64,000 nt of DNA from Nanobdellota archaeon (GTDB taxonomy: Archaea; Nanobdellota; Nanobdellia; Woesearchaeales; GW2011-AR4): positions 47,039-111,038 of the forward strand of contig JBBSWH010000009.1 of the NCBI GenBank assembly GCA_038046385.1, read 5' to 3'. The position numbers and the translations under genes were made by a program. The notes below the pieces were generated by a model, which was not told where the DNA came from, searched no databases, and worked only from the letters and a program-made list of their open reading frames with translations. Shown one piece after another: positions 11,741-45,866 of this stretch. Numbering within the stretch: the first letter of the stretch is position 1; each line of letters starts with the position of its first letter.

Positions 11741-12925
11741 TCAATTCCTTTTTATGGTGTTCCACAGGTCGATTACAACTTTGCCTTTAGGAATAAAAGT
11801 GGATTTGTATGCCGAGTGAGGGACTCCAATGATTATAATTTCACATTCCTTAATGAGCTTTTCTTTAGTGATAAAAGTAGCATCTTTCACGAATTCATCA
11901 GAATAGTAAACCTTAGCCCCATGAAATCTAAGTATCTTGCCGAGCTTGTAAGACAAAGAGTCTCTTATGTCGTCTATGTCCGCTTTAAATGCCATTCCAA
12001 GTATGCCGACTTTTTTCTTTGAAATGTCATATTTTTTTCTCAAATCGTCAACAATGAAATTTGGAAGCCCCTCATTTACCATCATTGCAGCGTGCCCAAG
12101 AAGAAAATTATTGCTGCTGAAAGCAGAAAGCTGCATTGTGTCTTTGAGAAGGCATGGGCCTGCTGCAAATCCAGCCCCGGGCAATGAATGCGCCCTTTCA
12201 TAGCTTTCTCTCATTGCATACCTTACCTTGTCGTAATCAACCCCAAAGTTATTTGAAATAATGTAGAACTGGTTGGCAACTGCAAATTGGATATAGCGCC
12301 ATGCATTTGAGAAAAGCTTTACAAGCTCGGCTTCTCCCATTGAAGCCGGTATTATTTTTGGAGATATTCTTCCGAATAGTTCAGAAGCTTCTTTTACAGC
12401 ATTGCCGCTCATGCCTGCAACTACCTGCGGCAGCCCGTTTAATTCCTTGACAGCATATCCCTGCACGATTCTTTCCGGGCAATATGCTATGTTCCAATCT
12501 TTTCCCAGAAGATTCTGGATTTGCCTGCATGTGTTTGGATATACAGTGCTCCTTATGACTATAATCTGGTCTTTATTCAGATGTTTGCTTATTTTCTGGA
12601 AGAATTCAAGAAACTGTCTGGTTTTTGGATTGAGATATTCATCAACAGGAGTGCCAATCGCAACAATAACACATTTTGCCTTTGAGATGGATTTTTCGTC
12701 AAGAGAAATGCTTAATTTTTTGTTTTGCAGGACTTTTTTCAATATAGAATCTGCACCATATTCTATGAAAGGCATAATCCCATTTTTTACAGATTCTGCC
12801 TTTTTCGGGTCAATGTCATAGAGGCATACACTTATTCCTTTGTCTGCAAAAACTATTCCAAGCGGCAGACCTACGTGGCCAAGACCGCCAACAATGACGA
12901 CATCATATTCATAATTTTTAACCAT
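11741..12925 (-). CDS. Nucleotide-sugar 6-dehydrogenase (WecC/Ugd family)
   Basis: Motifs GGLGHVGLP, RSTVYP, YCPER, AELVK, GPCLLKD and AFKADIDDIRDS. Confidence 0.92.
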   Translation of the reverse strand: MVKNYEYDVVIVGGLGHVGLPLGIVFADKGISVCLYDIDPKKAESVKNGIMPFIEYGADSILKKVLQNKKLSISLDEKSISKAKCVIVAIGTPVDEYLNPKTRQFLEFFQKISKHLNKDQIIVIRSTVYPNTCRQIQNLLGKDWNIAYCPERIVQGYAVKELNGLPQVVAGMSGNAVKEASELFGRISPKIIPASMGEAELVKLFSNAWRYIQFAVANQFYIISNNFGVDYDKVRYAMRESYERAHSLPGAGFAAGPCLLKDTMQLSAFSSNNFLLGHAAMMVNEGLPNFIVDDLRKKYDISKKKVGILGMAFKADIDDIRDSLSYKLGKILRFHGAKVYYSDEFVKDATFITKEKLIKECEIIIIGVPHSAYKSTFIPKGKVVIDLWNTIKRN

Positions 12926-13049
12926 AAACCAACCAAATTAGCACTATATCAACTCATTTTTGAATATAAGTATTCCTTTAAAAAACTTATGATTGACGCT
13001 TTCAGCTTAAAGCGAAAGTCTTTTAATAAACAAATTTTTTACATTATCA

Positions 13050-14345
13050 ATGGCAAAAACAATTACTGTAGTGGGGCTGGGATACGTTGGATTGCCGGTT
13101 GCATGCCTTTGCGCAGAAAAAGGGCTTAAGGTCTACGGATTTGAAATAAGCAGCGAAAAAGTTTCTTCTATAAACAAATGGGAAAGCCCGATAAAAGATG
13201 ACTACATCTCTGGCAAGCTTCTCCAGCTAAAAAGCCACGGCATAAAAATACACGCTACAACAAACCCGGCAGAGTGCATTCCATTTTCAGATGCAGTAAT
13301 AATCTGCGTTCCAACGCCAATTGACAGGCACAACTCTCCAGATTTAACCGCATTGATGGAATCAACAGCATCTGTTTCGAAACATATTAAGAAGGGAACT
13401 CTTCTTGTGATAGAGTCAACAATATATCCGGGAACAATTGAGGAGATTGTTTTGCCTATACTGGAAAAGCAAAAATTCGATTCCCATAATGATGATGTTT
13501 TTGTAGCTCACTGCCCTGAAAGGATAGACCCAGGCAACAGAAAATGGACAATAGAAATGCTACCAAGAGTTGTTGGCGGAGTTACAAAAGAATCCACAAA
13601 AAAAGCAGCTGAATTTTACAGAAGCATAATCGAAGCTGATGTGATTGAGCTCAGCAGCGTAAAGGCAGCTGAAGCAACTAAGATAATGGAAAATACATTC
13701 AGGGATATAAACATAGCATTTGTCAACGAGATGGCGCAGAGCTTTGACAAAGCCGGAATCGATATAATGGAAGTAATCAAAGGAGCATCAACAAAACCGT
13801 TTGCATTCATGCCGCATTATCCTGGTGCCGGAGTTGGCGGGCACTGCATACCTGTAGACCCTTATTATCTAATCGAAAAAGCCAAGCAAATAGGATTCAA
13901 CCATAAATTCCTAAGCCTGGCAAGAGAGATAAATAACAGCATGCCGCATTATACGATACAGCTGCTCGAAAACGAGCTGCATAAGCTGAAAAAATCAATA
14001 AAAGGCGCAAAAGTCGGCGTTCTTGGGCTTGCGTACAAATCCAATGTGGACGACATAAGGGAAAGCCCGTCAGTTGAAGTAATAAATATTTTGAAGACAA
14101 AAGGCGCAGAAGTTTTAGTATATGATCCATACATTGCCAAGGAGAGCACAGCCTCAAGCCTGGATGAACTTTTGAGCCACAGCGACTATATTGTTCTGGT
14201 TACAGACCACGAAGAATTCAAAAGCATTGATCCAAAAAAATTAAAGGACAAGAAGATACATATAGTAATAGACGGAAGAAACTGCCTTGACAAGGAAAAA
14301 ATCAAGTCCATGGGAATATCTTATCACGGAATCGGAAGATACTAG
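13050..14345 (+). CDS. UDP-N-acetyl-hexosamine 6-dehydrogenase (WecC/WbpA family)
   Basis: Motifs GLGYVGLP, CVPTP, ESTIYPGT, PERIDPG, ENTFRDINIA and GVGGHCIPVDP. Confidence 0.93.
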   Translation: MAKTITVVGLGYVGLPVACLCAEKGLKVYGFEISSEKVSSINKWESPIKDDYISGKLLQLKSHGIKIHATTNPAECIPFSDAVIICVPTPIDRHNSPDLTALMESTASVSKHIKKGTLLVIESTIYPGTIEEIVLPILEKQKFDSHNDDVFVAHCPERIDPGNRKWTIEMLPRVVGGVTKESTKKAAEFYRSIIEADVIELSSVKAAEATKIMENTFRDINIAFVNEMAQSFDKAGIDIMEVIKGASTKPFAFMPHYPGAGVGGHCIPVDPYYLIEKAKQIGFNHKFLSLAREINNSMPHYTIQLLENELHKLKKSIKGAKVGVLGLAYKSNVDDIRESPSVEVINILKTKGAEVLVYDPYIAKESTASSLDELLSHSDYIVLVTDHEEFKSIDPKKLKDKKIHIVIDGRNCLDKEKIKSMGISYHGIGRY

Positions 14346-14350
14346 ATAAA

Positions 14351-15205
14351 ATGGCAAAAATATGCATAGCCTGCAACAGCAAAAACAGCATAAAATTATT
14401 CAAAAAAACATCATTTCTAAAATATCCTCTTTATATCTGCGCATCATGCGGACTTTCTTTTTACTATGCAGATGACAAAGACGTAGAAAAAAAATGCGAT
14501 GAGTACTACAATTCCGCATACTGGGGCAGCGTAAGAAAAGATTGGGATGACCAGAGAAAGCTGATACTACCGATAATAAAAATAATGAGGATAATGAAGA
14601 CAAAGCCGCTGCAGCAGATGTGGCATCACAGGCTTATGCAGAAGCACTCGGCATCGAAAGGCAAGCTTTTGGACATAGGCTGCGGCAAGGGAGAATTCAT
14701 GATGTTCTTTCATCAAATGGGATATGATGTTGCAGGCATAGAGCCGGACAGAAACAATGCAGAACTTATCAACAAAAAGTTCAAAAGAGATGTGTGCATA
14801 AACAGCATTGCAGAAAAAGCAAAGCTAAAGGGCAAATACGACATTGTTTACCTGTGTCACGTATTTGAGCACCTTATAAGGCCGGATAATTTCCTGAAGA
14901 ACATGAAGAAAAACATATCAAAGAATGGAATGGTATTCATTGAGGTGCCAAACTGCGAAAATCCAAGAATACTGGATAATTCAATAAAGCACCACCCGCA
15001 TGTGTACAACTTCACTGCAAAATCACTGAAGAATCTTTTTGAAAACTGCGGCTATGAAATACTCGAGATAGGGCCATATTCAGAAAAAAGAGGCAATTAT
15101 GCATTGAAATTTTTTTTAATGGCGATGCAGCTTAATAATTATAGAAAAGCAAGCAACAAAGACGGAGAAATGCTCATAGTGCTGGCAAAGCCAAAAAGAC
15201 AATGA
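14351..15205 (+). CDS. Class I SAM-dependent methyltransferase with N-terminal Zn ribbon
   Basis: CIAC...CASC, LLDIGCGKG, HVFEH and EVPN. Confidence 0.88.
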   Translation: MAKICIACNSKNSIKLFKKTSFLKYPLYICASCGLSFYYADDKDVEKKCDEYYNSAYWGSVRKDWDDQRKLILPIIKIMRIMKTKPLQQMWHHRLMQKHSASKGKLLDIGCGKGEFMMFFHQMGYDVAGIEPDRNNAELINKKFKRDVCINSIAEKAKLKGKYDIVYLCHVFEHLIRPDNFLKNMKKNISKNGMVFIEVPNCENPRILDNSIKHHPHVYNFTAKSLKNLFENCGYEILEIGPYSEKRGNYALKFFLMAMQLNNYRKASNKDGEMLIVLAKPKRQ

Positions 15206-15206
15206 A

Positions 15207-16391
15207 ATGACAATTTTAAAATATCTAAATTATTCATATTCGCTTATTGCAAAAGGCTCGCCTTTTTTTCTTGCAAACGAAATATCGAAGGATTTTCTCG
15301 GAATCAGAAACAAAACAGAAAAAAATTCTATCCATATAAAATCAGCTGTTGAATGGATTTTGAATGCGCAAAAAGCAAACAGCGACGGCGGGGTTTCTGA
15401 AATGTATTCTCTGTACAGGGGATGGCACGGATCTTATTCAGAGACAACCGGATACATAATCCCGACAATGTACAACTATTACAATAAAACAAAAAACCCA
15501 ATAATAAAAGAGTCTGCAATCAGAATGGCAGAATGGGAACTGACAAAACAGCTTGATTGCGGCGCATTTCCAGGCGGAGCAACTGCGGACGGAAAAGAAT
15601 TTCCCATTATATTCAACACAGGCCAGGTTCTTTTTGGAATGTCAAGGGCGTTTCAGGAGACTAAAGAAGAAAAGTACAGAAAATCTGCTGCAATGGCTGC
15701 AGACTGGCTTGTAAAAATACAGAACGCAAAAGGGCATTGGCAAAAATCAGAGTATCTTGAGACAATACACACTTACAACACAAGAACAGCATGGGCGCTG
15801 CTGAAAGCATATGAAATAACCGGCAATAAAAATTATGCAAAATCATCAGCAAAAAACATAGACTGGGCGCTGAATCAGCAGAATGAAAACGGATGGTTTG
15901 AAAACAATGCATTTCATAAAAATCAGGAGCCTTTGCTGCATACAATAGCATACACAATACAGGGAATTCTCGAATGCGGAATTTCTCTGCAAAACGACAA
16001 ATACATTAATTCTGCAAAGCTATCATCAGACAAGATTATTGGCATGATGAAAGAAGACGGCTCAATTGCAGGAAGCTTTGACAGCAAATGGAAAAGCAGC
16101 GTTTCATGGTCATGCCTGACAGGAAACTGCCAGATGTCAATTGTATGGCTCAGGCTTTATTATATTACAAAAGACAGGAAATACCTTGAAGCTGCAAAAA
16201 AATCCAACAATTTTGTAAAATCAACACAAAACATAAATTCAGGCCATGGCGGAATAAGGGGAGGTATAAAGGGCGCTTACCCGATTTACGGCTGGTATGC
16301 GCCGTTCTGCTACATAAACTGGGGCGCGAAATTTTTTGTTGATGCTTTAATGCTGGAAGAATACAAAAAAATCGGAAACTTTTTGTCATAG
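15207..16391 (+). CDS. Alpha/alpha-toroid (prenyltransferase/squalene-cyclase repeat or six-hairpin glycosidase-like) protein
   Basis: Repeated W-L-x-x-x-Q-x-x-x-G-x-W/F motifs (WILNAQ, WELTKQLDCGAF, WLVKIQNAKGHW, WALNQQNENGWF) and a YSETTGY motif. Confidence 0.7.
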   Translation: MTILKYLNYSYSLIAKGSPFFLANEISKDFLGIRNKTEKNSIHIKSAVEWILNAQKANSDGGVSEMYSLYRGWHGSYSETTGYIIPTMYNYYNKTKNPIIKESAIRMAEWELTKQLDCGAFPGGATADGKEFPIIFNTGQVLFGMSRAFQETKEEKYRKSAAMAADWLVKIQNAKGHWQKSEYLETIHTYNTRTAWALLKAYEITGNKNYAKSSAKNIDWALNQQNENGWFENNAFHKNQEPLLHTIAYTIQGILECGISLQNDKYINSAKLSSDKIIGMMKEDGSIAGSFDSKWKSSVSWSCLTGNCQMSIVWLRLYYITKDRKYLEAAKKSNNFVKSTQNINSGHGGIRGGIKGAYPIYGWYAPFCYINWGAKFFVDALMLEEYKKIGNFLS

Positions 16392-17279
16392 CTGCCTGTT
16401 AAGGACAATTCTAGAAAATATCTTGTCCATAATCTTTGCAAAAGGCTTAAAGTATTTTATGAAAGGGTAAATTGCTATATTGAAAATCTTGAAGGCACCG
16501 TCATTTCTCAGGAAAAAATAAGGGTCCTTGCCGAGGAGATTAGTTCCTTCCTCAAACAGTTTGGAAGATTCAACTGCAATAATCTTTCCATTGCCAAGCT
16601 GCACTTCTTTCATAGTCTTATTTTTAATTAAGCAATTTTCAAACTTTGCCAATGAAGTGAAGAAATAGCTGTATTTCTCGTAGTATTTTATACTGCAGTC
16701 TTTTGGTTTTTTATTTTCAATCATTTTTCCCTTTATTTTTACAATATTCCTGTAAGGAACCCCGTGCATCTGCTCGATATAATGCGCAAATGTAAGCGAC
16801 TGAAAAGGAGCGCCTAGAAACACAACCTTGCCGTTGCTCATGTGCAATTTTGCAAACACAGAATCAGGCCCAAACGTATCTTCGCCTTTTTCAGAAAAAT
16901 AATCTTTTAGGTTTCCCCAAACAGCAACAGAATGTGTTGGATGCAATGTTCTTTTTACTCCTTTCTGCTTCCTGAAGAATTCAGTCAATGTGCCTACTGA
17001 AGATTTTGTTGAATCAGGGTCAAAGACTTCTTTTTTTTCTATGCTATAGGAAAATGTCGGAAGTATTATTGTTCCTGATTTGCCTACTGATTCCTTAAGC
17101 GATTCGATAAGCGAGCCAAGAAGCAGTTCTCTGCCAGAAGCAAGTAGTTTTCCAAAAGACCCTATGTCGGAATGCACAAAAATAATATCTCCTTTTTCTA
17201 TTCCTGCCTTTTTCAGGCTTTTCTGGAAGTCTATCTTCCTTAATATTGCACCGTTTGCCTCATACAGCGGCTCATTCAT
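16386..17279 (-). CDS. AAC(3)-family (Antibiotic_NAT) N-acyltransferase
   Basis: Motifs IFVHSD, IILPTFSY, GTLTEFFR, RTLHPTHSVAVWG and HYIEQ. Start moved to ATG 17279, which overlaps the end of the maoC-like gene. Confidence 0.88.
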   Translation of the reverse strand: MNEPLYEANGAILRKIDFQKSLKKAGIEKGDIIFVHSDIGSFGKLLASGRELLLGSLIESLKESVGKSGTIILPTFSYSIEKKEVFDPDSTKSSVGTLTEFFRKQKGVKRTLHPTHSVAVWGNLKDYFSEKGEDTFGPDSVFAKLHMSNGKVVFLGAPFQSLTFAHYIEQMHGVPYRNIVKIKGKMIENKKPKDCSIKYYEKYSYFFTSLAKFENCLIKNKTMKEVQLGNGKIIAVESSKLFEEGTNLLGKDPYFFLRNDGAFKIFNIAIYPFIKYFKPFAKIMDKIFSRIVLNRQL

Positions 17280-17697
17280 TTTTGAATATGACCTGGACGA
17301 TTCCATTGCCCCTGAATATAAGCTCGTTTTTGTTTCTGTATATCTCTGTTTTTATCTCTACAAATTTTGTAGACTCAATTTTTCTTGTAACCTTTCCAAC
17401 CACTTTTAATTCATCGCCTATAAAATAGGGCTTTACAAACTCAGCATCCTGCTTTATGCAGACTGAAGTGCCTCCGGGAAGGTATTCCCCATAGAGCCGT
17501 GATACAAAACTCGTGAGGAGAAAAGCATACCCTATTCTTTTTCCGAATTTTGTCTTTGATGAAAATTTTTCATTACAGTGTATTGGGCTTTTGTCCCCTG
17601 AGAGGTTAGAGAAGGCATTGTGGAGCTTCTCATCACACTTTACAGTAAAGCTTGCCTCGTCCCCAATGCCTATTTCTGAAAATATTTTTCCTTTCAT
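17272..17697 (-). CDS. MaoC-family hot-dog-fold (de)hydratase
   Basis: Hydratase motif FSNLSGDKSPIH (D-x-x-P-x-H), then FGKRI, LPG and FVKPYFIGD. Confidence 0.9.
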   Translation of the reverse strand: MKGKIFSEIGIGDEASFTVKCDEKLHNAFSNLSGDKSPIHCNEKFSSKTKFGKRIGYAFLLTSFVSRLYGEYLPGGTSVCIKQDAEFVKPYFIGDELKVVGKVTRKIESTKFVEIKTEIYRNKNELIFRGNGIVQVIFKNE

Positions 17698-17924
17698 TTT
17701 GCCTTGGCCTTTTTTTCAAACGAGTTTTTTAAGTCACCAAATGATTTTATGCTTTCTATTTCTTTTATAGTGAATTTTATCCCTGTTTTCTTTTCTATCT
17801 CGCTCATCAGCATCAGGTGATTGAATGAATCCCATTCTTCTGAATTGTCCCTGCTGAAACTGTCGTTCAGCTTTTCCTGCTTTATTCTAAGCACAGAAGC
17901 CATTATTGACTTTAAATTTTCCAT
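17694..17924 (-). CDS. Acyl carrier protein
   Basis: 76 aa with a WDSFNH phosphopantetheine attachment motif (Ser) followed by helix II LMLMSEIE. Confidence 0.88.
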   Translation of the reverse strand: MENLKSIMASVLRIKQEKLNDSFSRDNSEEWDSFNHLMLMSEIEKKTGIKFTIKEIESIKSFGDLKNSFEKKAKAK

Positions 17925-17925
17925 T

Positions 17926-19734
17926 TTATTTTTCCATCACTTTTATAAAATCAGGGGCATTGTATTTTTTTGAAATGTCATATTGCCACAGCTCCGTTCC
18001 ATTTTTCTTTTCCTTTAGCTTAAACCCATTATTCTTATAAAAATCCTTTGCAACTTCATTCTTATTTGTAGGAATAAAAAATGCCTTTAGCTGTTTTGCT
18101 TTTTTGGCTTTTGCTTCTTTTATTATAAACCAGAGCATAGACTCTTCAATCTTTCTTCCAATAACCCTGCAGCTCAGAAGGAATGTGTCAATTTCCCATT
18201 CATCAGCAGATTTTTTGATGATTGCTGCTCCTACAATCCCATTGTCCCCAAATTTATCCCTGCTCCTGACAGAAACTACAATCTCATTTTTGTTATTTGA
18301 CATTTTTTGAATATCCTCTTCAAGATACCTTTTTGTTGTCATATTGAACTGGTTTGTTTTTTGAGTCAGCTGTGATATCCTCGGAATGCTGAAGCTGCTG
18401 GCTTTTTCTATTGCAACAACGCTTCCAAGGCTTTTGAGATAAGAGTCTATATCTTTTGATGAGCTTTGAAGCTCTGCCCTTTTCCTTTGCTCTGCATACA
18501 TTTTTCCTTTTTTAAAATCCTCTTCAGTTATGCTGAATAAATTGAAGTCATTTGTTTCCATCAGGGTTTTTAGGTAAAGCGACGGGTCTTCCGGCATGTC
18601 AACAACAGTTACCTCGGGAAGCATTTTCCTGACAAAATCCCTGTTTAATTTATCATCGTCAATGAAGACCAGGCTATCTAAGCCTATGTTAAGCTCTTTT
18701 GCAATTTCTGCAATGTTTGATGCTTTGTCATCCCAGTTTATTTTCATGGATGCGAAATTGTTTTCCCTTAAGACCATGTCGGGATGTTTTTTAAAAACTT
18801 CAATTGCATCATTAAAATTGTTTTTGCTGCTTATTGCAAGTATCACACCTCTTTCGAACATCGCCAGCAGCGCTTTCTGGAACTCCGTAAACGGCCTTCC
18901 TTCAGGAGTGTTTCCTATTTTTATGCCTTCAATTCCGTCTTCTCCTATTATTCCGCCCCAAAGCGTGTTGTCAAGATCAAGCACGATGCATTTTTTTGTC
19001 AGGATCATCAACGGCTTTATGTAACCCATGTAATCTTTGCACAAATAAGGAACGCTCTGAATGCTTAGCCTGATATCTCCCATGTAATACATCTTGAAAT
19101 CTGTTGTATTTTCTTTGCCGATTTTTGAGCAGAACGATTCATAATCAAACAGGAACACTTTTGGATTATTTTTGCAATAATCCCTTAAATCAGAGTTTAA
19201 TTTTTCAACAGACTCTTTTAACCCAAAATCCTGCCGGTTTTCAAGAATTCCTATAGGGGAGTAAACAGGAACTTCAAAGTTATGCACAACTATTTTTGCA
19301 GTTGTTTTTTTCTCCAGTTTTTCAATAAGAATTTTTATGTCATTAAATTTTGAATTTATGTATGTTTTTCTCTTGCCGGATGATATGGAATACGGATTTA
19401 GGAAATAATCCTGCAGAATTGATTTTGTGTCAATGAAAAGAATCACAAGGCTTGGATTGAATTTGTACAAATCACTCGAATCATCAAGGATTTCCTGGGA
19501 ATACTGATTATATCCCCCGATGTAAATATCTGGGGTTATGCCTGCTTCGCAGCATTTCACAAAGATAGATTCTTTAAATCCGTTTGAAGTAAAGCTCGAG
19601 AGAAAGGCAACTTTCAGCTTCTTGCCGCTTATCTTATTTTTTTTAATTTCAGAATTCAGATGTTTGTAGAGGTTGATGTAGTCCGGCATGTTTTTTGGAT
19701 TTTTTTTCTTTATTATCTGGATTATTCTTTTCAT
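17926..19734 (-). CDS. FkbH-like HAD-IIIC glyceryl-transferase/phosphatase
   Basis: Motifs VLDLDNTLWGG, SKNN, KINWDDK, FIDD, QKTNQFN, DKFGDNG and LLSCRVIGR (acyl-carrying Cys), with a long N-terminal extension. Confidence 0.93.
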   Translation of the reverse strand: MKRIIQIIKKKNPKNMPDYINLYKHLNSEIKKNKISGKKLKVAFLSSFTSNGFKESIFVKCCEAGITPDIYIGGYNQYSQEILDDSSDLYKFNPSLVILFIDTKSILQDYFLNPYSISSGKRKTYINSKFNDIKILIEKLEKKTTAKIVVHNFEVPVYSPIGILENRQDFGLKESVEKLNSDLRDYCKNNPKVFLFDYESFCSKIGKENTTDFKMYYMGDIRLSIQSVPYLCKDYMGYIKPLMILTKKCIVLDLDNTLWGGIIGEDGIEGIKIGNTPEGRPFTEFQKALLAMFERGVILAISSKNNFNDAIEVFKKHPDMVLRENNFASMKINWDDKASNIAEIAKELNIGLDSLVFIDDDKLNRDFVRKMLPEVTVVDMPEDPSLYLKTLMETNDFNLFSITEEDFKKGKMYAEQRKRAELQSSSKDIDSYLKSLGSVVAIEKASSFSIPRISQLTQKTNQFNMTTKRYLEEDIQKMSNNKNEIVVSVRSRDKFGDNGIVGAAIIKKSADEWEIDTFLLSCRVIGRKIEESMLWFIIKEAKAKKAKQLKAFFIPTNKNEVAKDFYKNNGFKLKEKKNGTELWQYDISKKYNAPDFIKVMEK

Positions 19735-20090
19735 TTTTTCATGACAATTGCGAATGCCAATGCCTTGTCTTTGCAGTGGGATAGGCTTATTTTAATCTTC
19801 ACATTTTTGAATTTGTTTAGACTTGCTTTTGGAGCGTCATCAGTACTCGTTATCTCAATGTCATTGTACGAGACTTTTGATTTAATACTTATGGAAGACA
19901 AAGCCTTAACTATAGACTCTTTTCCGGCAAACCTTGCTGCAAGATGCTGTCCCGGAGATTTTTTTGAGTAGCAGTAATCAAGCTCTTTGCCGGTATATAT
20001 CTTTTTCAAAAATATTTTATCTTTTATCCTGCTTAATTTCTTAAACCTTTTTATATCCTCTATATCAGTTCCTATACCAATTTCTTTCAT
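19731..20090 (-). CDS. acpS: Holo-[acyl-carrier-protein] synthase (4'-phosphopantetheinyl transferase)
   Basis: Motifs GIGTDIE, HLAARFAGKESIVKA and ISLSH. Confidence 0.93.
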   Translation of the reverse strand: MKEIGIGTDIEDIKRFKKLSRIKDKIFLKKIYTGKELDYCYSKKSPGQHLAARFAGKESIVKALSSISIKSKVSYNDIEITSTDDAPKASLNKFKNVKIKISLSHCKDKALAFAIVMKK

Positions 20091-20096
20091 AGCGCC

Positions 20097-21188
20097 TTAG
20101 CAAACATTTTCTATAATACTTACAATCCTCTCAGTAGCCTTTCCGTCCCACAATTTAGGGATTTTATTCTTTACTTTTATTTTTCCGCTTATTATTTCAA
20201 GAGATTTGCTTATTACTTTTTTGCTGTCTGTGCTAACAAGCAAATTTGTGCCCTGGCTTACAGTCACTGGCCTTTCTGTGCTGTTCCTCATGGTTATGCA
20301 CGGTATTCTAAGAACCGTTGTTTCCTCCTGTATACCGCCGGAATCTGTCAAAACAAACCTGCTGTTTGACATCAGGCAAAGAAAGTCAAGGTATCCTAAT
20401 GGATCCGTGACAATCAAATTTTTCATTGATGATATCTTATTATTTAGGCCAAAAGACTCAATATTTTTTCTTGTTCTTGGATGAACCGGAAAAACAATCT
20501 TGATTTTATTTTGGACTTTTTCAAGTATTGATATTATTTTTTTAAGGCCGTTTTTAGTGTCTACGTTGCTGGGCCTGTGCAGCGTTAATACGCAGTATTC
20601 TTTTTTCTTTAATTTAAGATCTTTAAGAATTTTTGATTTGGAAGCTTTTTCTTTGTGCTGAAGAAGCGTGTCTATCATCACATTACCGACAAAGAAAATC
20701 CTTTCATTTGGTATTTTTTCATTAAGCAGGTTTTTCCTTGCGCTTTCTTCTGTTGTGAAAAGAAAATTGCTTATTCCGTCTGTAAGGATTCTGTTTATCT
20801 CTTCAGGCATTTCCATGTCGAAGCTCCTTAATCCGGCTTCAACGTGCGCAACCTTTATTCCAAGGTGCTTTGCAGCAAGCGCCCCTGCAAATGTAGAGTT
20901 TACGTCACCAACAACAACAACCAAATCAGGATTTTCATTCTTCAGCACTTTTTCAATCTCAGATGTCATTTTTTCTATCTGCTCCATTCTGTTTCCTGAG
21001 CTGATTCCAAGATTAACATTCGGCTTTGGCAAATTTAATTCATCGAAGAAAAGCCTGCTCATCTTTTTATCGTAATGCTGGCCCGTATGGACAAGAATGT
21101 GGTTTATTTTTCTTTTTTTGAATTCTTTTATCAGCGGGGCAATCTTCATGAAATTCGGCCTTGTTCCAACTATGCTGACAATTTTCAT
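20097..21188 (-). CDS. wecB: UDP-N-acetylglucosamine 2-epimerase (non-hydrolysing; WecB/WbpI-like)
   Basis: Motifs GTRPNFMK, HTGQHY, HVEAGLRS, MPEEINR, TLHRPSN and TDSGGIQEE. ATG 21188 is preferred over the upstream TTG. Confidence 0.93.
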   Translation of the reverse strand: MKIVSIVGTRPNFMKIAPLIKEFKKRKINHILVHTGQHYDKKMSRLFFDELNLPKPNVNLGISSGNRMEQIEKMTSEIEKVLKNENPDLVVVVGDVNSTFAGALAAKHLGIKVAHVEAGLRSFDMEMPEEINRILTDGISNFLFTTEESARKNLLNEKIPNERIFFVGNVMIDTLLQHKEKASKSKILKDLKLKKKEYCVLTLHRPSNVDTKNGLKKIISILEKVQNKIKIVFPVHPRTRKNIESFGLNNKISSMKNLIVTDPLGYLDFLCLMSNSRFVLTDSGGIQEETTVLRIPCITMRNSTERPVTVSQGTNLLVSTDSKKVISKSLEIISGKIKVKNKIPKLWDGKATERIVSIIENVC

Positions 21189-21208
21189 GATACTCCGCAA
21201 CCCAAATC

Positions 21209-21218
21209 TATTTAAATA
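21209..21218. promoter_or_regulatory. Palindromic TATA box shared by divergent genes
   Basis: TATTTAAATA is a perfect palindrome located exactly 20 nt from the ATG at 21188 (-) and 20 nt from the ATG at 21239 (+). Confidence 0.6.
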
Positions 21219-21238
21219 ATTTCCTATTAGCTGAAAGC

Positions 21239-22366
21239 ATGGGAAAACTGACAGTTGCTATTGTAATGCCGACGCATTTTGATGTTCATTCCTCACTTCT
21301 TAACTTTCTCAAGACATATGAATACCTTATCAAAAACAGGAATATTGATGTAACACTTTTTACGGACAGCAGGAATAAAGTAGATTACAAAAAACTGAAA
21401 ATAGAGAAGATTGAAGGGTTTGATTACGGAACCGGAATCGACAAAATTCTTTTCCTGCTCGGAATCCCGAGGTTTTATTATAAAAAACTTGACGAAAAAT
21501 TAAAGAAGTTTGATGTCATAACATCAAATAATCCTGAATTTTATGCTTTTGCATACCAGTCATACAAAGCAGCAAAAAGGCACAACAAGAGATTTGTATT
21601 AAGGACTTCACAGAGCGTTGAAGGATTCTTTTTCTTTAAGCTGACAAAATTCTTTTTATGCCCTTTTGTCAAAAAGGCATACGATTATTCCAAGTTTGTG
21701 GTATTTTCAAATCCTCAGGCAGAGGAAAGGTGCTTAAAATTAGGGCTTATTGACGACAGGAGAAAGAGCATAATCACTGGCCATGCGACTGATGTTGAAT
21801 GTTTTAAACCTATTAAAACGAAAAAAGGAAAAAATACAATCCTGCTTTCTGTCGGAGGATTATTGGAGCTTAAAGGACATCATTTAATAATAAAGTCACT
21901 TAAGAAGATTATTGACAACGGCCATAAAAACACAGAATTATGGATTGTTGGCGAGGGTTATTACAAACAAAAACTGCAGGATCTTGCAAAAGAGCTCGGA
22001 GTGGAAGATAATGTAAGGTTCCTCGGCAAGAAAGGCCACAATGAGCTTGCAACGATTTACAACATGTCAGACATTTTTGTCCTTGCCAATTATCAGGAGA
22101 TAACCCCTGCTGTGAACGAGGCGCTTGCTTGCGGAAAGCCTGTTGTTGCCATGGAATGCGGCGGCTGCGAATTTGTAATTCCCAACAAAAATTATGGATT
22201 GGTTTCAAGAAGATTTGATGTTGATGATATGGCAAGCAAGATAATCCTGCTGATGAAAGACAAGAAGCTTGCCTCCAAAATTGCAGCAAACGGAAGAAAA
22301 AGGATTCTTGAGAATTTCTCCATAGAAAAAGTGGCAGACAAGGTATACAGGGCATATACAGAATGA
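21239..22366 (+). CDS. Glycosyltransferase family 4
   Basis: Motifs SVGGLLELKG, IVGEG and EITPAVNEALACGKPVV. Confidence 0.9.
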   Translation: MGKLTVAIVMPTHFDVHSSLLNFLKTYEYLIKNRNIDVTLFTDSRNKVDYKKLKIEKIEGFDYGTGIDKILFLLGIPRFYYKKLDEKLKKFDVITSNNPEFYAFAYQSYKAAKRHNKRFVLRTSQSVEGFFFFKLTKFFLCPFVKKAYDYSKFVVFSNPQAEERCLKLGLIDDRRKSIITGHATDVECFKPIKTKKGKNTILLSVGGLLELKGHHLIIKSLKKIIDNGHKNTELWIVGEGYYKQKLQDLAKELGVEDNVRFLGKKGHNELATIYNMSDIFVLANYQEITPAVNEALACGKPVVAMECGGCEFVIPNKNYGLVSRRFDVDDMASKIILLMKDKKLASKIAANGRKRILENFSIEKVADKVYRAYTE

Positions 22367-22392
22367 TTTTGCATACTAATAGTATTTGATAT

Positions 22393-22409
22393 CATAAGCT
22401 TTATAAAGC
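22393..22409 (+). promoter_or_regulatory. Archaeal BRE/TATA-like promoter of the wbp-like cassette
   Basis: CATAAGCTTTATAAAGC, with TTTATAAA 22 nt before ATG 22430. A 16/17-identical copy is at 28104-28120. Confidence 0.55.
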
Positions 22410-22429
22410 CATTTTAGCGCTTATCGATT

Positions 22430-23014
22430 ATGCCAAAATTTCTCATACATCCGACAGCAGATGTTGCAAAAAATGCAAAAATAGGAAATGGAACTAAGAT
22501 ATGGCACCATTGCCACGTAAGGGAAAATGTTTCTATAGGGAAAAACTGCATTCTTGGCAAGAATGTTTACATTGACCATAATATCAAAATAGGCAACAAT
22601 GTAAAGATACAGAACAACTGCTCCATTTATTTTGATTCTAAAATTGAAGACGGAGTTTTTATAGGGCCCCATGTGGTTTTTACAAACGACACAAATCCAA
22701 GGGCGATCACAAGAGACGGGAAAATTAAATCAGCAAATGAATGGAATGCCGGAAAGATTCTGATAAAAAAAGGAGCTTCAATAGGCGCACGCTCTGTTTT
22801 ACTGCCGAATTTGACTATTGGAACCTTTGCAATGGTTGGCGCAGGATCTGTTGTAACAAAAAATGTTGGTGATTACCGCTTGGTGTATGGGAATCCTGCA
22901 AGAGTCATGGGCTTCGTATGCGCGTGTGGGCATAAAATAAAAAATCCAGAGATGGAAAAATCCAAGATAGTATTGAAATGCGATAAGTGCAAGCATACCA
23001 CAATAACAAAATGA
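22430..23014 (+). CDS. WbpD/WlbB-like sugar N-acetyltransferase (hexapeptide repeat)
   Basis: Motifs IHPTADV, KIWH, KIQNN, FTND..PR, GNPAR and a C-terminal CxCG...CxxC. Confidence 0.9.
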   Translation: MPKFLIHPTADVAKNAKIGNGTKIWHHCHVRENVSIGKNCILGKNVYIDHNIKIGNNVKIQNNCSIYFDSKIEDGVFIGPHVVFTNDTNPRAITRDGKIKSANEWNAGKILIKKGASIGARSVLLPNLTIGTFAMVGAGSVVTKNVGDYRLVYGNPARVMGFVCACGHKIKNPEMEKSKIVLKCDKCKHTTITK

Positions 23015-24108
23015 TAAATATTTCCAAGCCTTCTATCGGAAAAGAGGAGATTGATGCTGTTGTTAATGTCCTTAAATCAGGAATGATAGCGCAGGGGCCG
23101 AAAACAAAGGAATTTGAGCAGGAATTTGCAAAATTTGCTGGGGTAAAATATGCTGTAGCAATGAATTCCGGAACAGCAGCCCTGCACGCTGCGCTTTATG
23201 CAGCAGGCGTGAAAGAAAATGATGAAGTCATAACAACTCCATTTACATTCATTGCAACTGCAAATTCCATTCTTATGCAGAATGCAAAGCCAGTCTTTGC
23301 TGATATAGAAGAAGATAATTTCAACATTGATGCTTCCCAGATTGAAAATAAAATAACAAAAAAGACAAAGGCAATACTTGCTGTTGACCTTTATGGGCAC
23401 CCTTATGCTTATGATGATGTAAAGGAGATTGCTGACAAGCACGGGCTTAAGATAATAGAGGATGCATGCCAGGCTGTTGGCGCTGATTTTAACGGAAAGA
23501 AATGCGGCTCTTTAGGGGATATTGGAACGTTTTCATTCTATGCGACAAAAAACATGACAACAGCAGAGGGCGGAATGCTCACGACAGACAATGAAGAATA
23601 CGCTGAGCTTGCAAAACAGCTTCGTCATCATGGGCAGAGCGAAAAAGTAAGATACGAATATTTCGGCCTTGGATACAATTACAGGATGACAGACATAAAT
23701 GCTGCAATCGGGCTTGAGCAGATGAAGAAGATAAATGAATGGAACAAAAAAAGGATAGACAATGCAGCTTTTTTGAGCAAACGCCTTGGGAAAATAAAAG
23801 GAATAAAAGTTCCTGCTGTTCAGAAGAACTGTACGCACGTTTTCCACCAATATACCATTATTGTAAAAGATGATTTCAAAATGAAAAGAGACGGGCTTAT
23901 GGAACATCTTAAGCAGAAAGGCGTTGGAAGCGGAGTTTATTATCCAAAGCCGCTGCACTTATTTAAGCACATTTCAAAATTCGGATACAAGCAAGGGGAT
24001 TTTCCGGTTGCAGAAAAACTTTCTCAGCAGGTTTTGTCTTTGCCAATCCATCCGCAGCTTACAAAAGAAGAGCTTGAAACAATAGCAAAAGCATTCGAGG
24101 AAATATGA
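23011..24108 (+). CDS. WbpE/WlbC-like DegT aminotransferase
   Basis: Motifs NSGTAAL, EDACQA, SFYATKNMTTAEGG and GYNYRM. ATG 23011 overlaps the previous stop (ATGA). Confidence 0.92.
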   Translation: MINISKPSIGKEEIDAVVNVLKSGMIAQGPKTKEFEQEFAKFAGVKYAVAMNSGTAALHAALYAAGVKENDEVITTPFTFIATANSILMQNAKPVFADIEEDNFNIDASQIENKITKKTKAILAVDLYGHPYAYDDVKEIADKHGLKIIEDACQAVGADFNGKKCGSLGDIGTFSFYATKNMTTAEGGMLTTDNEEYAELAKQLRHHGQSEKVRYEYFGLGYNYRMTDINAAIGLEQMKKINEWNKKRIDNAAFLSKRLGKIKGIKVPAVQKNCTHVFHQYTIIVKDDFKMKRDGLMEHLKQKGVGSGVYYPKPLHLFKHISKFGYKQGDFPVAEKLSQQVLSLPIHPQLTKEELETIAKAFEEI

Positions 24109-25100
24109 AACTTAAAGTTGCAGTTATCGGAGCAGGTGCAATGGGCAAGAACCATGCAAGAGTTTATTCTGAGATGAAGAATGTTGAGCTTGTTGCAGTA
24201 TGCGATTCCAGCAAAGAAGTTGGCGGGCAGATTGCAGCGCTTTACGGCGCAAAATACTATTCTGATTACAAAGATATGCTTGCAAAAGAGAAGCTTGACG
24301 CGGTTTCAATCTGCGTTCCGACAAAATTTCACCGTGAAGTTTCTATTGCAGTTATCAAAAAGAAAATAAATGTGCTTGTTGAAAAGCCGATTGCGACTAC
24401 TGTTTCGGAAGCAGAAGAAATAATTTCAGAAGCGCAGAAAAATAAAGTAAAACTAATGATTGGCCACATTGAGTGCTTTAATCCGGTTGTTGTTGAACTG
24501 AAAAGAAGAATTGCCGGGGGAGAGCTTGGCAAGATATACAAAGTCCATTGCAACAGGATGGGGCCTTCTGTTCAGAGAATTTATGATGTTGGCGTTATCA
24601 TAGACATTGCAATCCATGAGATTTACATTCTGAAGTACCTTATTGACTCTGATGTCAAGAGAGTTTATGCAGAGACAGAAAGGAAGATACACTCAACACA
24701 CGAAGATTTGCTTATAGGGACAATACGATTCAGCAACGATGTGCTTGGTGTTATCAATGCAAACTGGATTACGCCTAGGAAGTTCAGGGAGATAACGGTT
24801 ACAGGCGAGAAAGGAATGTTTGTTGCCAATTATCTGACCCAGGATCTTGATTTTTATGAGAACGATTTTGTCAAGAAAAATATTGACTACAAAAGCCACA
24901 CAATGCTTGTGATGGAAGGAAAGAAAATTCCTATTGATGTGAAGAAAAGCGAGCCACTTCGCAATGAGCTTGATGCTTTTGTTGACTGTGTTTTAAACGA
25001 CAAAAAAGTGCCTGTAACTGGCAATGAAGGGCTTGAAGCTTTGCGTGTTGCGCAGAAGTTCCTTGAGTCATCTAAACAGAATAAAGTGATGGAATTATGA
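24105..25100 (+). CDS. WbpB/WlbA-like Gfo/Idh/MocA sugar 3-dehydrogenase
   Basis: Motifs GAGAMGKNHAR, VEKP, GHIECFNP and DIAIHE. Confidence 0.9.
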   Translation: MKLKVAVIGAGAMGKNHARVYSEMKNVELVAVCDSSKEVGGQIAALYGAKYYSDYKDMLAKEKLDAVSICVPTKFHREVSIAVIKKKINVLVEKPIATTVSEAEEIISEAQKNKVKLMIGHIECFNPVVVELKRRIAGGELGKIYKVHCNRMGPSVQRIYDVGVIIDIAIHEIYILKYLIDSDVKRVYAETERKIHSTHEDLLIGTIRFSNDVLGVINANWITPRKFREITVTGEKGMFVANYLTQDLDFYENDFVKKNIDYKSHTMLVMEGKKIPIDVKKSEPLRNELDAFVDCVLNDKKVPVTGNEGLEALRVAQKFLESSKQNKVMEL

Positions 25101-26275
25101 AAATAAGCGTTTCCGGCTTGGGAAAGGCAGGATTGCCATTGGCTGCGGTTATTGCAGATGCAGGAATTGATGTTATCGGAATAGATGTTGATGTTAAAAG
25201 GGTTGCCGACATTAACAATGGAGTTAATCCAATACCGGAAGAAACCGGATTATCTTCTTTAATTAAGAAATACGGCGGGAAGAGATTAAAGGCAACTACA
25301 AATGCTGCCGATGCTGTAAAGGAAACTTCTGCCCATATTGTGATTGTTCCTTTGTTTATTGATTCCGCGAAGAAATGCGATTTTTCTTTGTTACAGAAGG
25401 CTTTTACTGATATTGGAAACTCTCTTAAGAAGAATGATGTTGTTGTGCTTGAAACAACTGTTCCGGTTGGGACAACAGAGACTTTTGTGAAAGGGATACT
25501 TGAGAAAGAGTCTGGACTTAAATGTGGTTCTGATTTTTACCTTGCATATTCTCCTGAGAGGATAATGACGGGATATTCTATTTCACGCTTTAAGGAATTT
25601 CCAAAATTGGTTGGAGGGGTTGATGCTAAAAGTTCGCAAAAGGCATTTGAAGTTTATTCAAAGTTTGCAAACCCTGTCAAGGTTAGTAATTCAAGAACAG
25701 CAGAGCTTGCGAAAGTATCTGAAGGCGTTTATCGCGATGTCAATATTGCTTTAGCCAATGAATTGCTTAAAGTTGCTGAACATTATTCAATAGACTTCTG
25801 GGAGATGAAAGAGGCTGCAAATCACCAGTTTTGCAACATACACGAGCCAGGGAATGTCGGAGGGCATTGTATTCCAGTCTATCCGTGGTTTTTAATTAAT
25901 TCACTTGATGTTCCACTGATTAAAGTTGCACGCAAACTGAATGATGATATGATTGAATTCTATGCTGGCAAGGTTGCTGCAATTGGTGGGAAGAAAGTCG
26001 GAGTGATTGGACTAAGCTACAGGGAAGGCGTCAAGGAAAAGGCATATTCACGCTCTGTTGACATGATTAAACTGCTTCAGAAGAAAGGATATGATGTTTA
26101 TGGGTATGATCTGCTTTATTCTGCAGAAGAAACTTTGAAAGAGTTCGGCTGCAAGTATCTTGATGACTTTGGAAAGATGGATGTTTTGATACTGATGAAC
26201 AAGGAAGTTTCTTTGAAAAGCAAATTACTTAAGATGAAGGATAAGGTTGTTGATGTGAAGAATGTTTTAAGATGA
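25097..26275 (+). CDS. WbpA-like UDP-GlcNAc 6-dehydrogenase
   Basis: Motifs GLGKAGLP, ETTVPVGTT, YSPER, YRDVNIALANE and GGHCIPVYP. Confidence 0.9.
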   Translation: MKISVSGLGKAGLPLAAVIADAGIDVIGIDVDVKRVADINNGVNPIPEETGLSSLIKKYGGKRLKATTNAADAVKETSAHIVIVPLFIDSAKKCDFSLLQKAFTDIGNSLKKNDVVVLETTVPVGTTETFVKGILEKESGLKCGSDFYLAYSPERIMTGYSISRFKEFPKLVGGVDAKSSQKAFEVYSKFANPVKVSNSRTAELAKVSEGVYRDVNIALANELLKVAEHYSIDFWEMKEAANHQFCNIHEPGNVGGHCIPVYPWFLINSLDVPLIKVARKLNDDMIEFYAGKVAAIGGKKVGVIGLSYREGVKEKAYSRSVDMIKLLQKKGYDVYGYDLLYSAEETLKEFGCKYLDDFGKMDVLILMNKEVSLKSKLLKMKDKVVDVKNVLR

Positions 26276-26279
26276 AACA

Positions 26280-44816: not shown

Positions 44817-45866
44817 TTATTTTACAGATTCTGACATTAATTTAATGTCATAATCGACCATAAGATTGACTAGATCGCTGAAAGTGGTCTTTGGTTTCCA
44901 TCCGAGCTTTTTCTTTGCATAAGATGAATCTCCAAGAAGCTCTTCAACTTCAGTAGGCCTGAAATAAACCGGATCAATTTTCACTATTGTTTTTTTTGTT
45001 TTTTGGTCAATTCCTATCTCATTAATCCCCTTTCCTTCCCATACTATGTTAATGCCAACTCTTGCAAATGCCTTTTCTACAAATTCCCTTACTGTGTGGT
45101 TTTAGCCTGTTGCTATAACAAAATCTTCCGGCTCTTTTTGCTGCAGCATAAGCCACATTGCTTCTACATATTCCTTTGCATAACCCCAGTCCCTTTTTGC
45201 ATCAAGGTTTCCGAGGACAAGCTGGTTATCCAGCCCGAGCTTGATTTTAGCAACCTGCTGCGTCACTTTCTTCGACACAAAATTTTCCCCCCTTCTTTCA
45301 GATTCGTGGTTGAAAAGTATGCCGTTGCAGCAGAACATTTTGTAAGCTTCCCTGAAGTTGATGGTTATCCAATGAGAATACAGCTTGGCTATTCCGTAAG
45401 GGCTTCTTGGATAAAAAGGCGTTTTTTCAGTCTGGGGGACTTCAAGAACCTTGCCATAAAGCTCGCTTGTGGATGCATTGTAAAACCTTACCTTATCCAC
45501 CATGTTAAGATTTTTTATTGACTCAAGAATCCTTAAAGTTCCCAGTGCATCTGAATTTGCCGTATATTCAGGTATCTCAAAAGAAATCTTTACGTGGCTT
45601 TGCGCTGCAAGGTGGTAAACTTCAGTTGGCATTACATCCTTAAGAATCTTTATTATGGAGCTTGAGTCGGTCATGTCCCCGTAATGCAGCGTTAATTTGC
45701 CCCTTTCTTCATGGTCATAGTCATAGATGCTCTTCAGCCTTTCCCTGTTGAATGAGCTTGAGCGCCTTGCTATCCCATGGACTTCGTAGCCTTTCTTAAG
45801 CAAGAATTCAGCGAGAAAAGACCCGTCCTGCCCAGTAATTCCGGTAATCAAAGCAACTTTCTTCAT
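44817..45866 (-). pseudogene. gmd: GDP-mannose 4,6-dehydratase interrupted by an in-frame TAA at 45102-45104
   Basis: Reads [39 protein letters not shown]-stop-NHTVREFVEKAF...YFRPTEVE.LLGD...LGWKP. The frame continues to TAA at 44817-44819, giving a full-length 350 codons. Confidence 0.9.

Follow-up and report, generated by a model that had tools for sequence, protein, structure and literature searches.

What does a self-contained set of carrier-protein genes do in the middle of the glycan genes of an archaeon? The question is raised by a 64,000-nucleotide stretch of DNA, hereafter the window, which makes up the last 64 kb of a 111-kb contig (contig C9 of the source genome G000; G000:C9:1-111038) of a Nanobdellota archaeon, and which encodes an acyl carrier protein (ACP) together with enzymes expected to prime it, load it, modify its acyl group and unload it. 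We consider it probable, from the content of the operon and the company it keeps, that six genes make a three-carbon (C3) acyl donor on a carrier of their own and use it to N-acylate a nucleotide-linked amino sugar of a surface glycan. The six genes, in their predicted order of transcription, are:

20097..21200, minus strand: WecB/WbpI-type UDP-N-acetylhexosamine 2-epimerase, the operon's first gene (PF02350, 374 bits; TIGR00236, 360.7 bits)
19731..20090, minus strand: AcpS-type 4'-phosphopantetheinyl transferase, 119 residues (PF01648, 51.3 bits; TIGR00516, 65.3 bits)
17926..19734, minus strand: FkbH-like loader, 602 residues, with an FkbH_N domain, a HAD-IIIC phosphatase domain and a C-terminal acyltransferase domain with an SCR cysteine
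17694..17924, minus strand: stand-alone ACP, 76 residues (PP-binding, 19.4 bits; WDSFN motif)
17272..17697, minus strand: MaoC/(R)-hydratase-type hot-dog dehydratase, 141 residues (PF01575, 49 bits)
16386..17306, minus strand: acyltransferase of the Antibiotic_NAT (AAC(3)) fold, from an ACP-linked clade, 306 residues (PF02522, 143.5 bits)

An earlier note on this DNA, made from the letters alone, had described the last five of these as a cassette. The genes and their tight spacing are real and intact: the AcpS and FkbH genes overlap by 4 nucleotides (nt), a 1-nt gap separates FkbH from the ACP, the ACP and MaoC genes overlap by 4 nt, and MaoC overlaps the AAC(3)-like gene by 35 nt, or by 8 nt if the latter starts at Met10. 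The unit was nevertheless drawn too small; because only 6 nt separate the end of the WecB-type gene from AcpS, and the two share a strand, it belongs as a sixth gene, and we predict a transcription unit of six. The order WecB-AcpS-FkbH-ACP-MaoC-AAC(3) recurs in at least four metagenome loci (L068, L070, L074 and L076), and, since the gene order recurs in other genomes as well as on metagenome contigs, the arrangement is not a chance juxtaposition. The catalytic motifs that the note had pointed out (DxD and SCR in FkbH, DS in the ACP, DxxPxH in MaoC) are present and are conserved in alignments of relatives.

In the pathway that we propose, AcpS would prime Ser33 of the ACP with phosphopantetheine taken from CoA. 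FkbH would draw 1,3-bisphosphoglycerate (1,3-BPG) from glycolysis, its HAD domain stripping the 3-phosphate, and would hold the glycerate on Cys522 before passing it to the holo-ACP. MaoC would take off the 3-hydroxyl as water to give 2-hydroxyacryloyl-ACP (enolpyruvoyl-ACP) and, by tautomerization, pyruvoyl-ACP, after which the Antibiotic_NAT-fold enzyme would dock the ACP and move the acyl group to a sugar amine by means of its Thr-His-Glu motif. The acceptor would probably be a UDP-2-acetamido-3-amino(uronic) sugar from neighbouring Wbp-like enzymes, and the WecB/WbpI-type enzyme would epimerize the sugar at C2.

Loader, carrier and dehydratase

The loader scores 322.5 bits against TIGR01686, for which the curated cut-off is 146.65, also matches the FkbH_N domain, and contains HAD motif I (DxD) along with the remaining HAD motifs; its residues 22-404 align with PDB entry 3SLR (BF1531) at an E value of 4.7e-60. 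In an alignment of 16 sequences, which takes in four of the short forms described below, D253, D255, S303, K337, D359, D360 and the triad S521-C522-R523 are invariant. FkbH enzymes dephosphorylate 1,3-BPG, hold the resulting glycerate on a conserved cysteine of the C-terminal domain, which is the acyl-enzyme site, and then load it onto a holo-ACP. Because PGK and GAPDH are both encoded in the genome, 1,3-BPG should be available, and we infer by analogy that it is the substrate of this loader and that glycerate is what reaches the ACP.

AcpS, a single-domain protein, passes the cut-offs of both models given above (25 bits for PF01648 and 59.8 bits for TIGR00516). Across 11 cassette ACPs, S33 is invariant and D32 is conserved in at least 90% of sequences, and helix II thus opens with an Asp-Ser attachment motif. 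Searching the whole of G000 with Pfam and with our own hidden Markov models (HMMs), we obtained a single ACPS match and a single PP-binding match. Both fall within the cassette, and this 85%-complete genome gave no match to a ketoacyl synthase. The two suppositions of the earlier note, that no other ACP or fab genes are present and that the cassette brings its own phosphopantetheinyl transferase, probably because the host has none, fit this result. The second agrees with a published account in which most archaea have neither ACP nor its synthase (PMC3533463); here and below, sources given by PMC number are cited for part of their text.

The dehydratase lies well above the PF01575 cut-off of 27 bits, and D35, P38 and H40 of its motif do not vary among the 11 sequences aligned. 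The nearest solved structures are two (R)-specific enoyl-CoA hydratases (5CPG and 1IQ6) and a 3-hydroxyacyl-thioester dehydratase (3IR3). Enzymes of this MaoC/(R)-hydratase type act on 3-hydroxyacyl thioesters, and 2,3-dihydroxypropanoyl-ACP less one water is 2-hydroxyacryloyl-ACP, which is the enol of pyruvoyl-ACP. That dehydration comes before further modification is supported by the related cassettes in which MaoC is paired with, or fused to, a ketoreductase, where lactyl-ACP would be expected.

The cassette of the window contains no ketoreductase, as had been claimed for it. The classical short-chain dehydrogenase/reductase (SDR) family was matched by 0 of the 59 window open reading frames (ORFs) scanned, and an HMM of our own found no orthologue of the same-genus cassette SDR in the rest of G000. 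Among 34 FkbH-linked AAC(3) loci from metagenomes, MaoC occurs alone in 16 and together with an SDR in 8, and the other 10 lack the two of them; the window and G012, a genome of the same genus, are of the MaoC-only type, and G005, also of that genus, has an SDR. With 16 of these 34 loci of the MaoC-only type, the lack of a ketoreductase is a recurrent design rather than the outcome of a loss. Candidates of two kinds for additional tailoring enzymes were considered and rejected. The SDRs encoded on contigs C6 and C7, as displaced ketoreductases, have 26% identity to the same-genus cassette SDR, and a methyltransferase encoded in the window at 14351-15205 has 20-22% identity to MaoC-linked methyltransferases, confined to the generic S-adenosylmethionine-binding region, and is no orthologue of theirs.

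For the family as a whole, the acyl group delivered should follow from the gene content: glyceroyl where MaoC is lacking, pyruvoyl or enolpyruvoyl where it is present, and lactoyl where a ketoreductase accompanies it. For the window itself, an N-pyruvoyl or enolpyruvoyl amide is our tentative first choice, with somewhat less than an even chance of being correct; N-glyceroyl and some other product altogether come next and are rated alike, followed by N-lactoyl made through an unlinked reductase.

The AAC(3)-like transferase and its link to carrier proteins

The transferase far exceeds the PF02522 cut-off of 25 bits. Against the NCBIfam model of the resistance enzymes, AAC_3 (NF033082), it reaches 89.3 of the required 270 bits, and it falls far below the cut-offs of all the subtype models; judged by these models it is not an aminoglycoside-resistance equivalog. 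Its best PDB matches are FrbF (3SMA) and YokD (2NYG), both of which are fold members without aminoglycoside activity (PMC8956665). The catalytic motif described for Antibiotic_NAT enzymes is Tx(phi)H(phi)AE (PMC8956665); in the window it reads T-F-A-H-Y-I-E, with Ile in place of Ala, and across 50 members of the clade T172 never varies, and conservation at H175 and E178 is 90% or more.

With a profile of these 50 members alone we fetched 79 metagenome loci, which were then scanned with HMMs built from our own alignments. We stress that the resulting figures are counts and not statistics, that the relatives are not independent of one another, and that many of the loci are short contigs. An ACP gene lies within 3 kb of the transferase gene in 49 of the 79. 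Where at least 3 kb of sequence is available on both sides (27 loci), an ACP is present in 23, AcpS in 18, FkbH in 16, MaoC in 11 and an SDR in 7. MaoC and the transferase are moreover fused into single proteins of 409-417 residues in 7 of 70 sequence homologues, and four fusion loci occur in the metagenomes.

An ACP gene is found directly upstream of the transferase gene, with no FkbH gene, in L093, L096, L102, L104, L109, L111, L113, L116, L132, L133 and L144; in L116 and L132 the ACP match sits within proteins of 466 and 604 residues. Given such loci, other loading enzymes seem to feed the same transferase clade, whose gene linkage is to carrier proteins of any kind and, in many cases, to FkbH.

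A model of the complex between the window's transferase and its ACP scores 0.68, the best of three controls scoring 0.07, and the runs agree in 100% of contacts. Of solved complexes, 116 of 157 attain the mark applied to such models, as do 2 of 215 mismatched pairs; these figures are only approximate here, since the model drew on our own alignments. The ACP, with a predicted local distance difference test (pLDDT) value of 87 as a partner in the model, presents Ser33 and helix II (residues 29, 32-34, 36-38, 40-41 and 44) to residues 47-54, 58-63 and 101-109 of the transferase, the first of these stretches falling just after its VHS motif. We know of no solved complex between an Antibiotic_NAT protein and an ACP, so it seems unlikely that the model passes by virtue of a memorized structure. 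The model supports, but does not show, binding between the two proteins. Three observations favour the proposal of the earlier note that the AAC(3)-like enzyme takes over the acyl group of the ACP, namely the linkage in 23 of 27 loci, the MaoC-AAC(3) fusions and this model, and we infer that a direct hand-over takes place.

The window protein shares its fold and Thr-His-Glu motif with FrbF, YokD and BA2930, the last of which likewise has no aminoglycoside activity (PMC8956665). Whereas the known members use acetyl-CoA, the clade of the window is tied to ACP, AcpS and FkbH genes, with occasional MaoC fusions, and these features suggest that its donor is an acyl-ACP and its acyl group a C3 unit.

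Archaeal host and related cassettes

G000 comprises 1.28 Mb in 19 contigs, with an estimated completeness of 85% and contamination of 0.41%. The archaeal affiliation that had been presumed for it is supported by several observations. The genome encodes TBP, and contig C9, whose GC content of 0.377 is in line with that of the other contigs (0.358-0.404), carries an STT3/AglB protein of 1085 residues. The closest homologues of FkbH and of the AAC(3)-like protein, at 85% identity, are labelled Candidatus Nanoarchaeia archaeon, and many at about 60% are labelled Woesearchaeota. In G012 these five genes are found at a distance of 2 kb from STT3, and in G224, a genome of the same order, an AcpS...FkbH-[MaoC-SDR]-AAC(3) cassette lies about 80 kb from TBP on a single 1.0-Mb contig (C1). 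Contigs from a second, independent study cover 30 of 30 bins of window positions 12000-26000, the pieces listed being without differences, and they bridge the junctions on the cassette's flanks, between AcpS and WecB and between the AAC(3)-like gene and its convergent neighbour, as well as the junction between ACP and FkbH.

That the contig is bacterial or chimeric, and its archaeal setting an artefact of binning, has some points to recommend it. Neither small-subunit (SSU) rRNA nor ribosomal protein S3Ae was found in G000, a result that at 85% completeness does not show their absence; no informational gene was found on C9; and two close FkbH homologues are labelled as coming from an Omnitrophica bacterium and from a 'bacterium'. 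Those two sequences, however, nest within the archaeal clade in a quick, unfinished, midpoint-rooted tree in which the plasmid homologues are long-branched, and, set against TBP, STT3/AglB, the uniform GC, the low contamination, the cassettes of G012 and G224 and the matching contigs of the second study, this explanation is hardly credible. We therefore regard the archaeal setting of the locus as established.

Two further features of the assembly were noticed. ARAGORN finds only 8 tRNA genes in the 1.28 Mb of this 85%-complete genome, three of them with odd anticodon loops. In two runs of the second study, contigs with a depth of about 76-84 (that of this organism is about 5) join position 22622 to position 16476 with 29 other letters between them, and loose ends occur at 16493 and 22605 in all four runs compared. 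This joint is probably a short stretch (16476-16493 and 22605-22622, pieces of about 18 nt with 90% likeness) held in common with a different, abundant organism.

Thirteen archaeal loci with a long FkbH were examined: that of the window, L018 and L019 (from named archaeal metagenome-assembled genomes), L020-L023 and L055-L060. AcpS is present in 12 of the 13, the exception being a 6-kb contig, and an ACP likewise in 12. MaoC is present in all 13, once as a fusion with an SDR (L056, 563 residues), once as a fusion with a methyltransferase (L057, 458 residues) and once at a distance of 7 kb, and a FabG-like SDR is found in 7. The adjacent acyltransferase is AAC(3)-like in four loci, of the LbH fold in three and an MBOAT in three, with none seen in the remaining three. 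The MBOAT pairings with the FkbH-ACP core (L020, L055 and L057) recall DltB/DltC; the LbH pairings are those of L018, L019 and L060, in two of which a polysaccharide deacetylase lies alongside. The combination of LbH and deacetylase neighbours recalls a logic of deacetylation followed by reacylation, and L060 also encodes, at 10480-11127, a 2-oxoacid-dehydrogenase-type acyltransferase domain. By its gene content, then, the cassette of the window is one member of a modular family with AAC(3)-like, LbH or MBOAT transferases and an optional MaoC, ketoreductase or methyltransferase.

Within the genus, FkbH occurs in 8 of 36 genomes, and in 0 of 24 genomes drawn from other families of the same order. 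An even sample of 401 genomes from the phylum contains ACPS in 33 and FkbH above the cut-off in 10. Nine of these ten have the long form and all nine have ACPS, against 24 of the 392 other genomes; the remaining genome, G233, carries the short form and gave no ACPS match. Counted in these figures are G402 and G290 (and, for ACPS, also G291 and G366), which are unpublished; with G402 and G290 left out, all 7 of 7 long-FkbH genomes have ACPS. The description of the cassette as an archaeal route holds to the extent that it recurs across archaea, but it is not confined to them: a Rhodobacteraceae plasmid carries ACP-FkbH-MBOAT beside sulfotransferase and acyltransferase genes.

The short form of FkbH, of about 355 residues, consists of the HAD domain and a GNAT-like domain, lacks FkbH_N and keeps all the catalytic residues. 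It is encoded in L024-L029 and L061 (genomes G019, G014, G001, G024, G033, G011 and G233), near AAC(3)-like, MaoC, WecB and (alpha/alpha)6-barrel genes, and neither ACP nor AcpS was detected at these loci, which may represent a carrier-independent version of the pathway.

Glycan setting, competing explanations and implications

Contig C9 is given over almost entirely to glycan machinery. Besides AglB/STT3 it encodes at least 15 glycosyltransferases, two Wzx-type flippases, several PMT_2 proteins, two sulfatases, four UDP-sugar dehydrogenases, heptosyltransferase-like GT9s and the three DegT enzymes that the earlier note had counted, which we find in the window at 10121-11215, 22987-24108 and 46650-47771. 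An ADP-heptose-like set (SIS, PfkB, HAD and cytidylyltransferase) lies at 29.4-33 kb of C9, and for a genome of 1.3 Mb this amount of glycan machinery, nearly all of the 111 kb, is unusually large. In relatives the cassettes adjoin genes for WecB, glycosyltransferases, STT3 and CMP-sugar synthetase; in G224 the CMP-sugar synthetase gene comes after that of the AAC(3)-like protein. The operon of the window is flanked by the following:

21239..26275, plus strand: divergent operon, by Pfam matches encoding GT4, LbH N-acetyltransferase, DegT, GFO/IDH/MocA oxidoreductase and UDP-sugar 6-dehydrogenase
15207..16391, plus strand: (alpha/alpha)6-barrel protein, 394 residues, convergent neighbour whose membership in the system is uncertain

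We take the domain set of the divergent operon to be that of the WbpD/E/B/A route to UDP-2,3-diacetamido-2,3-dideoxy-uronic acids, with WecB as the 2-epimerase of the WbpI type. By this analogy, our best guess for the acceptor is the 3-amine of a UDP-2-acetamido-3-amino(uronic) sugar made by these Wbp-like enzymes, and the acceptor probably differs between loci.

The (alpha/alpha)6-barrel gene converges on the AAC(3)-like gene with a 6-nt overlap, and is also found beside it in L021, L022, L026 and L028 and in 14 of the 79 metagenome loci, mostly those of the closest relatives. The protein has many invariant aromatic and acidic residues, and its structural model (pLDDT 82.9) retrieves with Foldseek, as top matches, unsaturated glucuronyl hydrolases of family GH88 (2FV0, E 7e-10) and AGE-type sugar 2-epimerases. 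It may act on a uronic-acid sugar. Elsewhere in the window, a 254-residue GDP-mannose 4,6-dehydratase-like ORF (45102-45866, minus strand) spans positions 1-250 of a 332-position profile and is followed downstream, on the same strand, by a 55-residue ORF (44817-44984), so that the gene may be truncated or frameshifted. The glycan genes are interrupted by one for a 584-residue protein (26280-28034, minus strand) whose sole Pfam match is a DnaJ domain at the C terminus; the gene falls in the stretch of lowest GC in the window (26001-28000, 0.304).

The two explanations closest to the proposed pathway concern its last steps. In one, the cassette delivers a plain N-glyceroyl group and MaoC has another role, as an editing thioesterase, a hydratase acting on some other substrate or a scaffold. 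N-glyceroyl is a documented C3 amide of bacterial glycans, as in the Pse5Am7Gra of Tannerella (PMC5378307), and, with 10 of the 34 FkbH-linked loci lacking MaoC, the transferase clade apparently accepts undehydrated glyceryl-ACP. We nonetheless regard this explanation as unlikely for the window, given that all 11 cassette MaoCs aligned keep the catalytic Asp and His of the hydratase motif, that MaoC is present in each of the 13 archaeal long-FkbH loci, and that its fusions with ketoreductase, methyltransferase and AAC(3)-like domains fit the tailoring of an ACP-bound acyl group. In the other, the AAC(3)-like protein is an ordinary acetyl-CoA N-acetyltransferase that merely lies beside the carrier genes, and the acyl-ACP goes to another acceptor. 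No characterized member of the fold is known to use a donor other than acetyl-CoA, and acetyl-CoA chemistry is also what PMC8956665 describes. The same explanation would accommodate the absence of an ACP from 4 of the 27 well-flanked loci and the AAC(3)-like gene of G233, which occurs without any ACPS match. It sits poorly with the ACP found in 23 of 27 loci that were picked through the transferase alone, with the MaoC-AAC(3) fusions and with a complex model that places Ser33 of the ACP against the enzyme at many times the score of its controls. Since the operon also holds no second acyltransferase, we think it quite improbable. A more distant possibility, that the genes make a small secondary metabolite of polyketide or tetronate type and decorate no glycan, would suit the fact that FkbH/ACP pairs are best known from polyketide pathways, and a homologue on a Pseudalkalibacillus plasmid does sit among ketosynthases and FabZ in a fatty-acid- or polyketide-like cluster. 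The lack of any ketoacyl synthase match in G000, the surroundings of the cassette, about 111 kb of glycan genes with AglB on the same contig, and the glycan genes adjoining the cassettes of relatives make this very improbable.

Several of our own observations weigh against the pathway of C3 loading, dehydration and ACP-dependent N-acylation, or against parts of it. The cassette ACP itself misses the PF00550 gathering cut-off (19.4 against 20.8 bits), which its orthologues in L019, L020 and L023 exceed at 23.4-25.3 bits. CoaB (DFP), looked for as a source of CoA for priming, was not found in the 85%-complete G000. The 4 well-flanked loci without an ACP count here as well, and in 7 of the 27 an ACP occurs without FkbH; FkbH is therefore not a specific partner of the AAC(3) clade. 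In G233, which is 95% complete in one contig of 829 kb, the analysis found a short FkbH, MaoC and an AAC(3)-like gene with zero ACPS matches, and relatives of these enzymes may for this reason work without a carrier, on CoA thioesters or straight from the FkbH cysteine. The two generic SDRs of contigs C6 and C7 could in principle reduce the product. The LbH acetyltransferase encoded in the neighbouring Wbp-like operon is a competitor for the hypothetical acceptor amine, and we know of no glycan with a sugar N-pyruvoyl group.

The individual parts of the proposed system belong to known families, and there are precedents for the FkbH-to-ACP step, for hot-dog dehydration and for carrier-dependent acylation of sugars. 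FkbH/OzmB-type enzymes form glyceryl-ACP for the methoxymalonyl-ACP and tetronate units of polyketide pathways. The window's loader resembles them in belonging to the TIGR01686 family, in its HAD DxD motif and SCR cysteine and in the dedicated small ACP encoded alongside, but the genome has no ketosynthase or polyketide synthase (PKS), the proposed output goes to a glycan acyltransferase, and the host is an archaeon without other carrier metabolism. Loading modules of the arrangement DH-KR-FkbH-ACP, as in BryA of bryostatin biosynthesis, have been proposed to make lactyl starter units, a precedent that our literature searches did not confirm. FkbH loading, dehydration to pyruvoyl and optional ketoreduction would be common to both, and the MaoC-SDR fusion of the archaeal L056 fits the comparison, whereas here the proteins are free-standing, a MaoC hot-dog protein stands in for the PKS dehydratase, there is no ketoreductase, and the proposed transfer is to a sugar amine. 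In bacteria, LpxA and LpxD (LbH fold) acylate sugars from acyl-ACP, and DltC and DltB form a carrier-MBOAT pair. As there, a carrier would feed a sugar-modifying transferase, and FkbH-ACP cores linked to LbH and MBOAT proteins exist, but the proposed donor is a glycolysis-derived C3 unit and not a fatty acid or D-alanine, and the transferase is of a third fold.

A C. jejuni locus (Cj1296-Cj1304) presumably holds HAD-IIIC, ACP and AAC(3)-like genes, a gene content that these searches likewise did not confirm. N-glyceroyl and di-O-methylglyceroyl nonulosonic acids are described from Tannerella forsythia and Campylobacter jejuni (PMC5378307, PMC3068675), and the genetic basis of the N-glyceroyl group of Tannerella was called unsolved in 2017 (PMC5378307). 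These compounds resemble the proposed product in being C3 hydroxy-acyl amides on surface sugars; they differ in being bacterial and based on pseudaminic acid, and the parts of the two papers cited here state no link to FkbH. In the open-access literature we found no paper that connects FkbH with glycan acylation, although work in subscription journals may exist. Within the literature searched, we found no description of the combination of a polyketide-type C3 loading module that feeds glycan acyltransferases, an ACP-tied Antibiotic_NAT clade and the recurrence of both in DPANN archaea.

Extending the proposal to the whole family is a more tentative step, to which we give somewhat less than an even chance. 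On this hypothesis, DPANN archaea otherwise without carrier-protein metabolism would use FkbH and ACP as a glycolysis-fed C3 donor, a 'mini-PKS for glycans' in which CoA serves for priming only, a dehydratase, ketoreductase or methyltransferase is optional, so that glyceroyl, pyruvoyl or enolpyruvoyl, lactoyl or methylated groups would result, and three transferase folds are interchangeable; the AAC(3)-like enzyme would be the first ACP-fed Antibiotic_NAT protein, and the ketoreductase-less flavour would yield an N-pyruvoyl sugar. If true, this would show by which genes and what mechanism sugars come to carry C3 hydroxy- and oxo-acyl amides, and a polyketide-type loading system would have been reused in the tailoring of glycans. 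AAC(3)-fold chemistry would be broadened from acetyl-CoA to acyl-ACP donors, which bears on the annotation of 'aminoglycoside acetyltransferases' in environmental genomes. Although ACP and its synthase are generally missing in archaea (PMC3533463), a cassette that primes its own carrier would recur among them, and for host-dependent archaea limited in cofactors, acyl activation straight from 1,3-BPG may be an economical means of surface variation.

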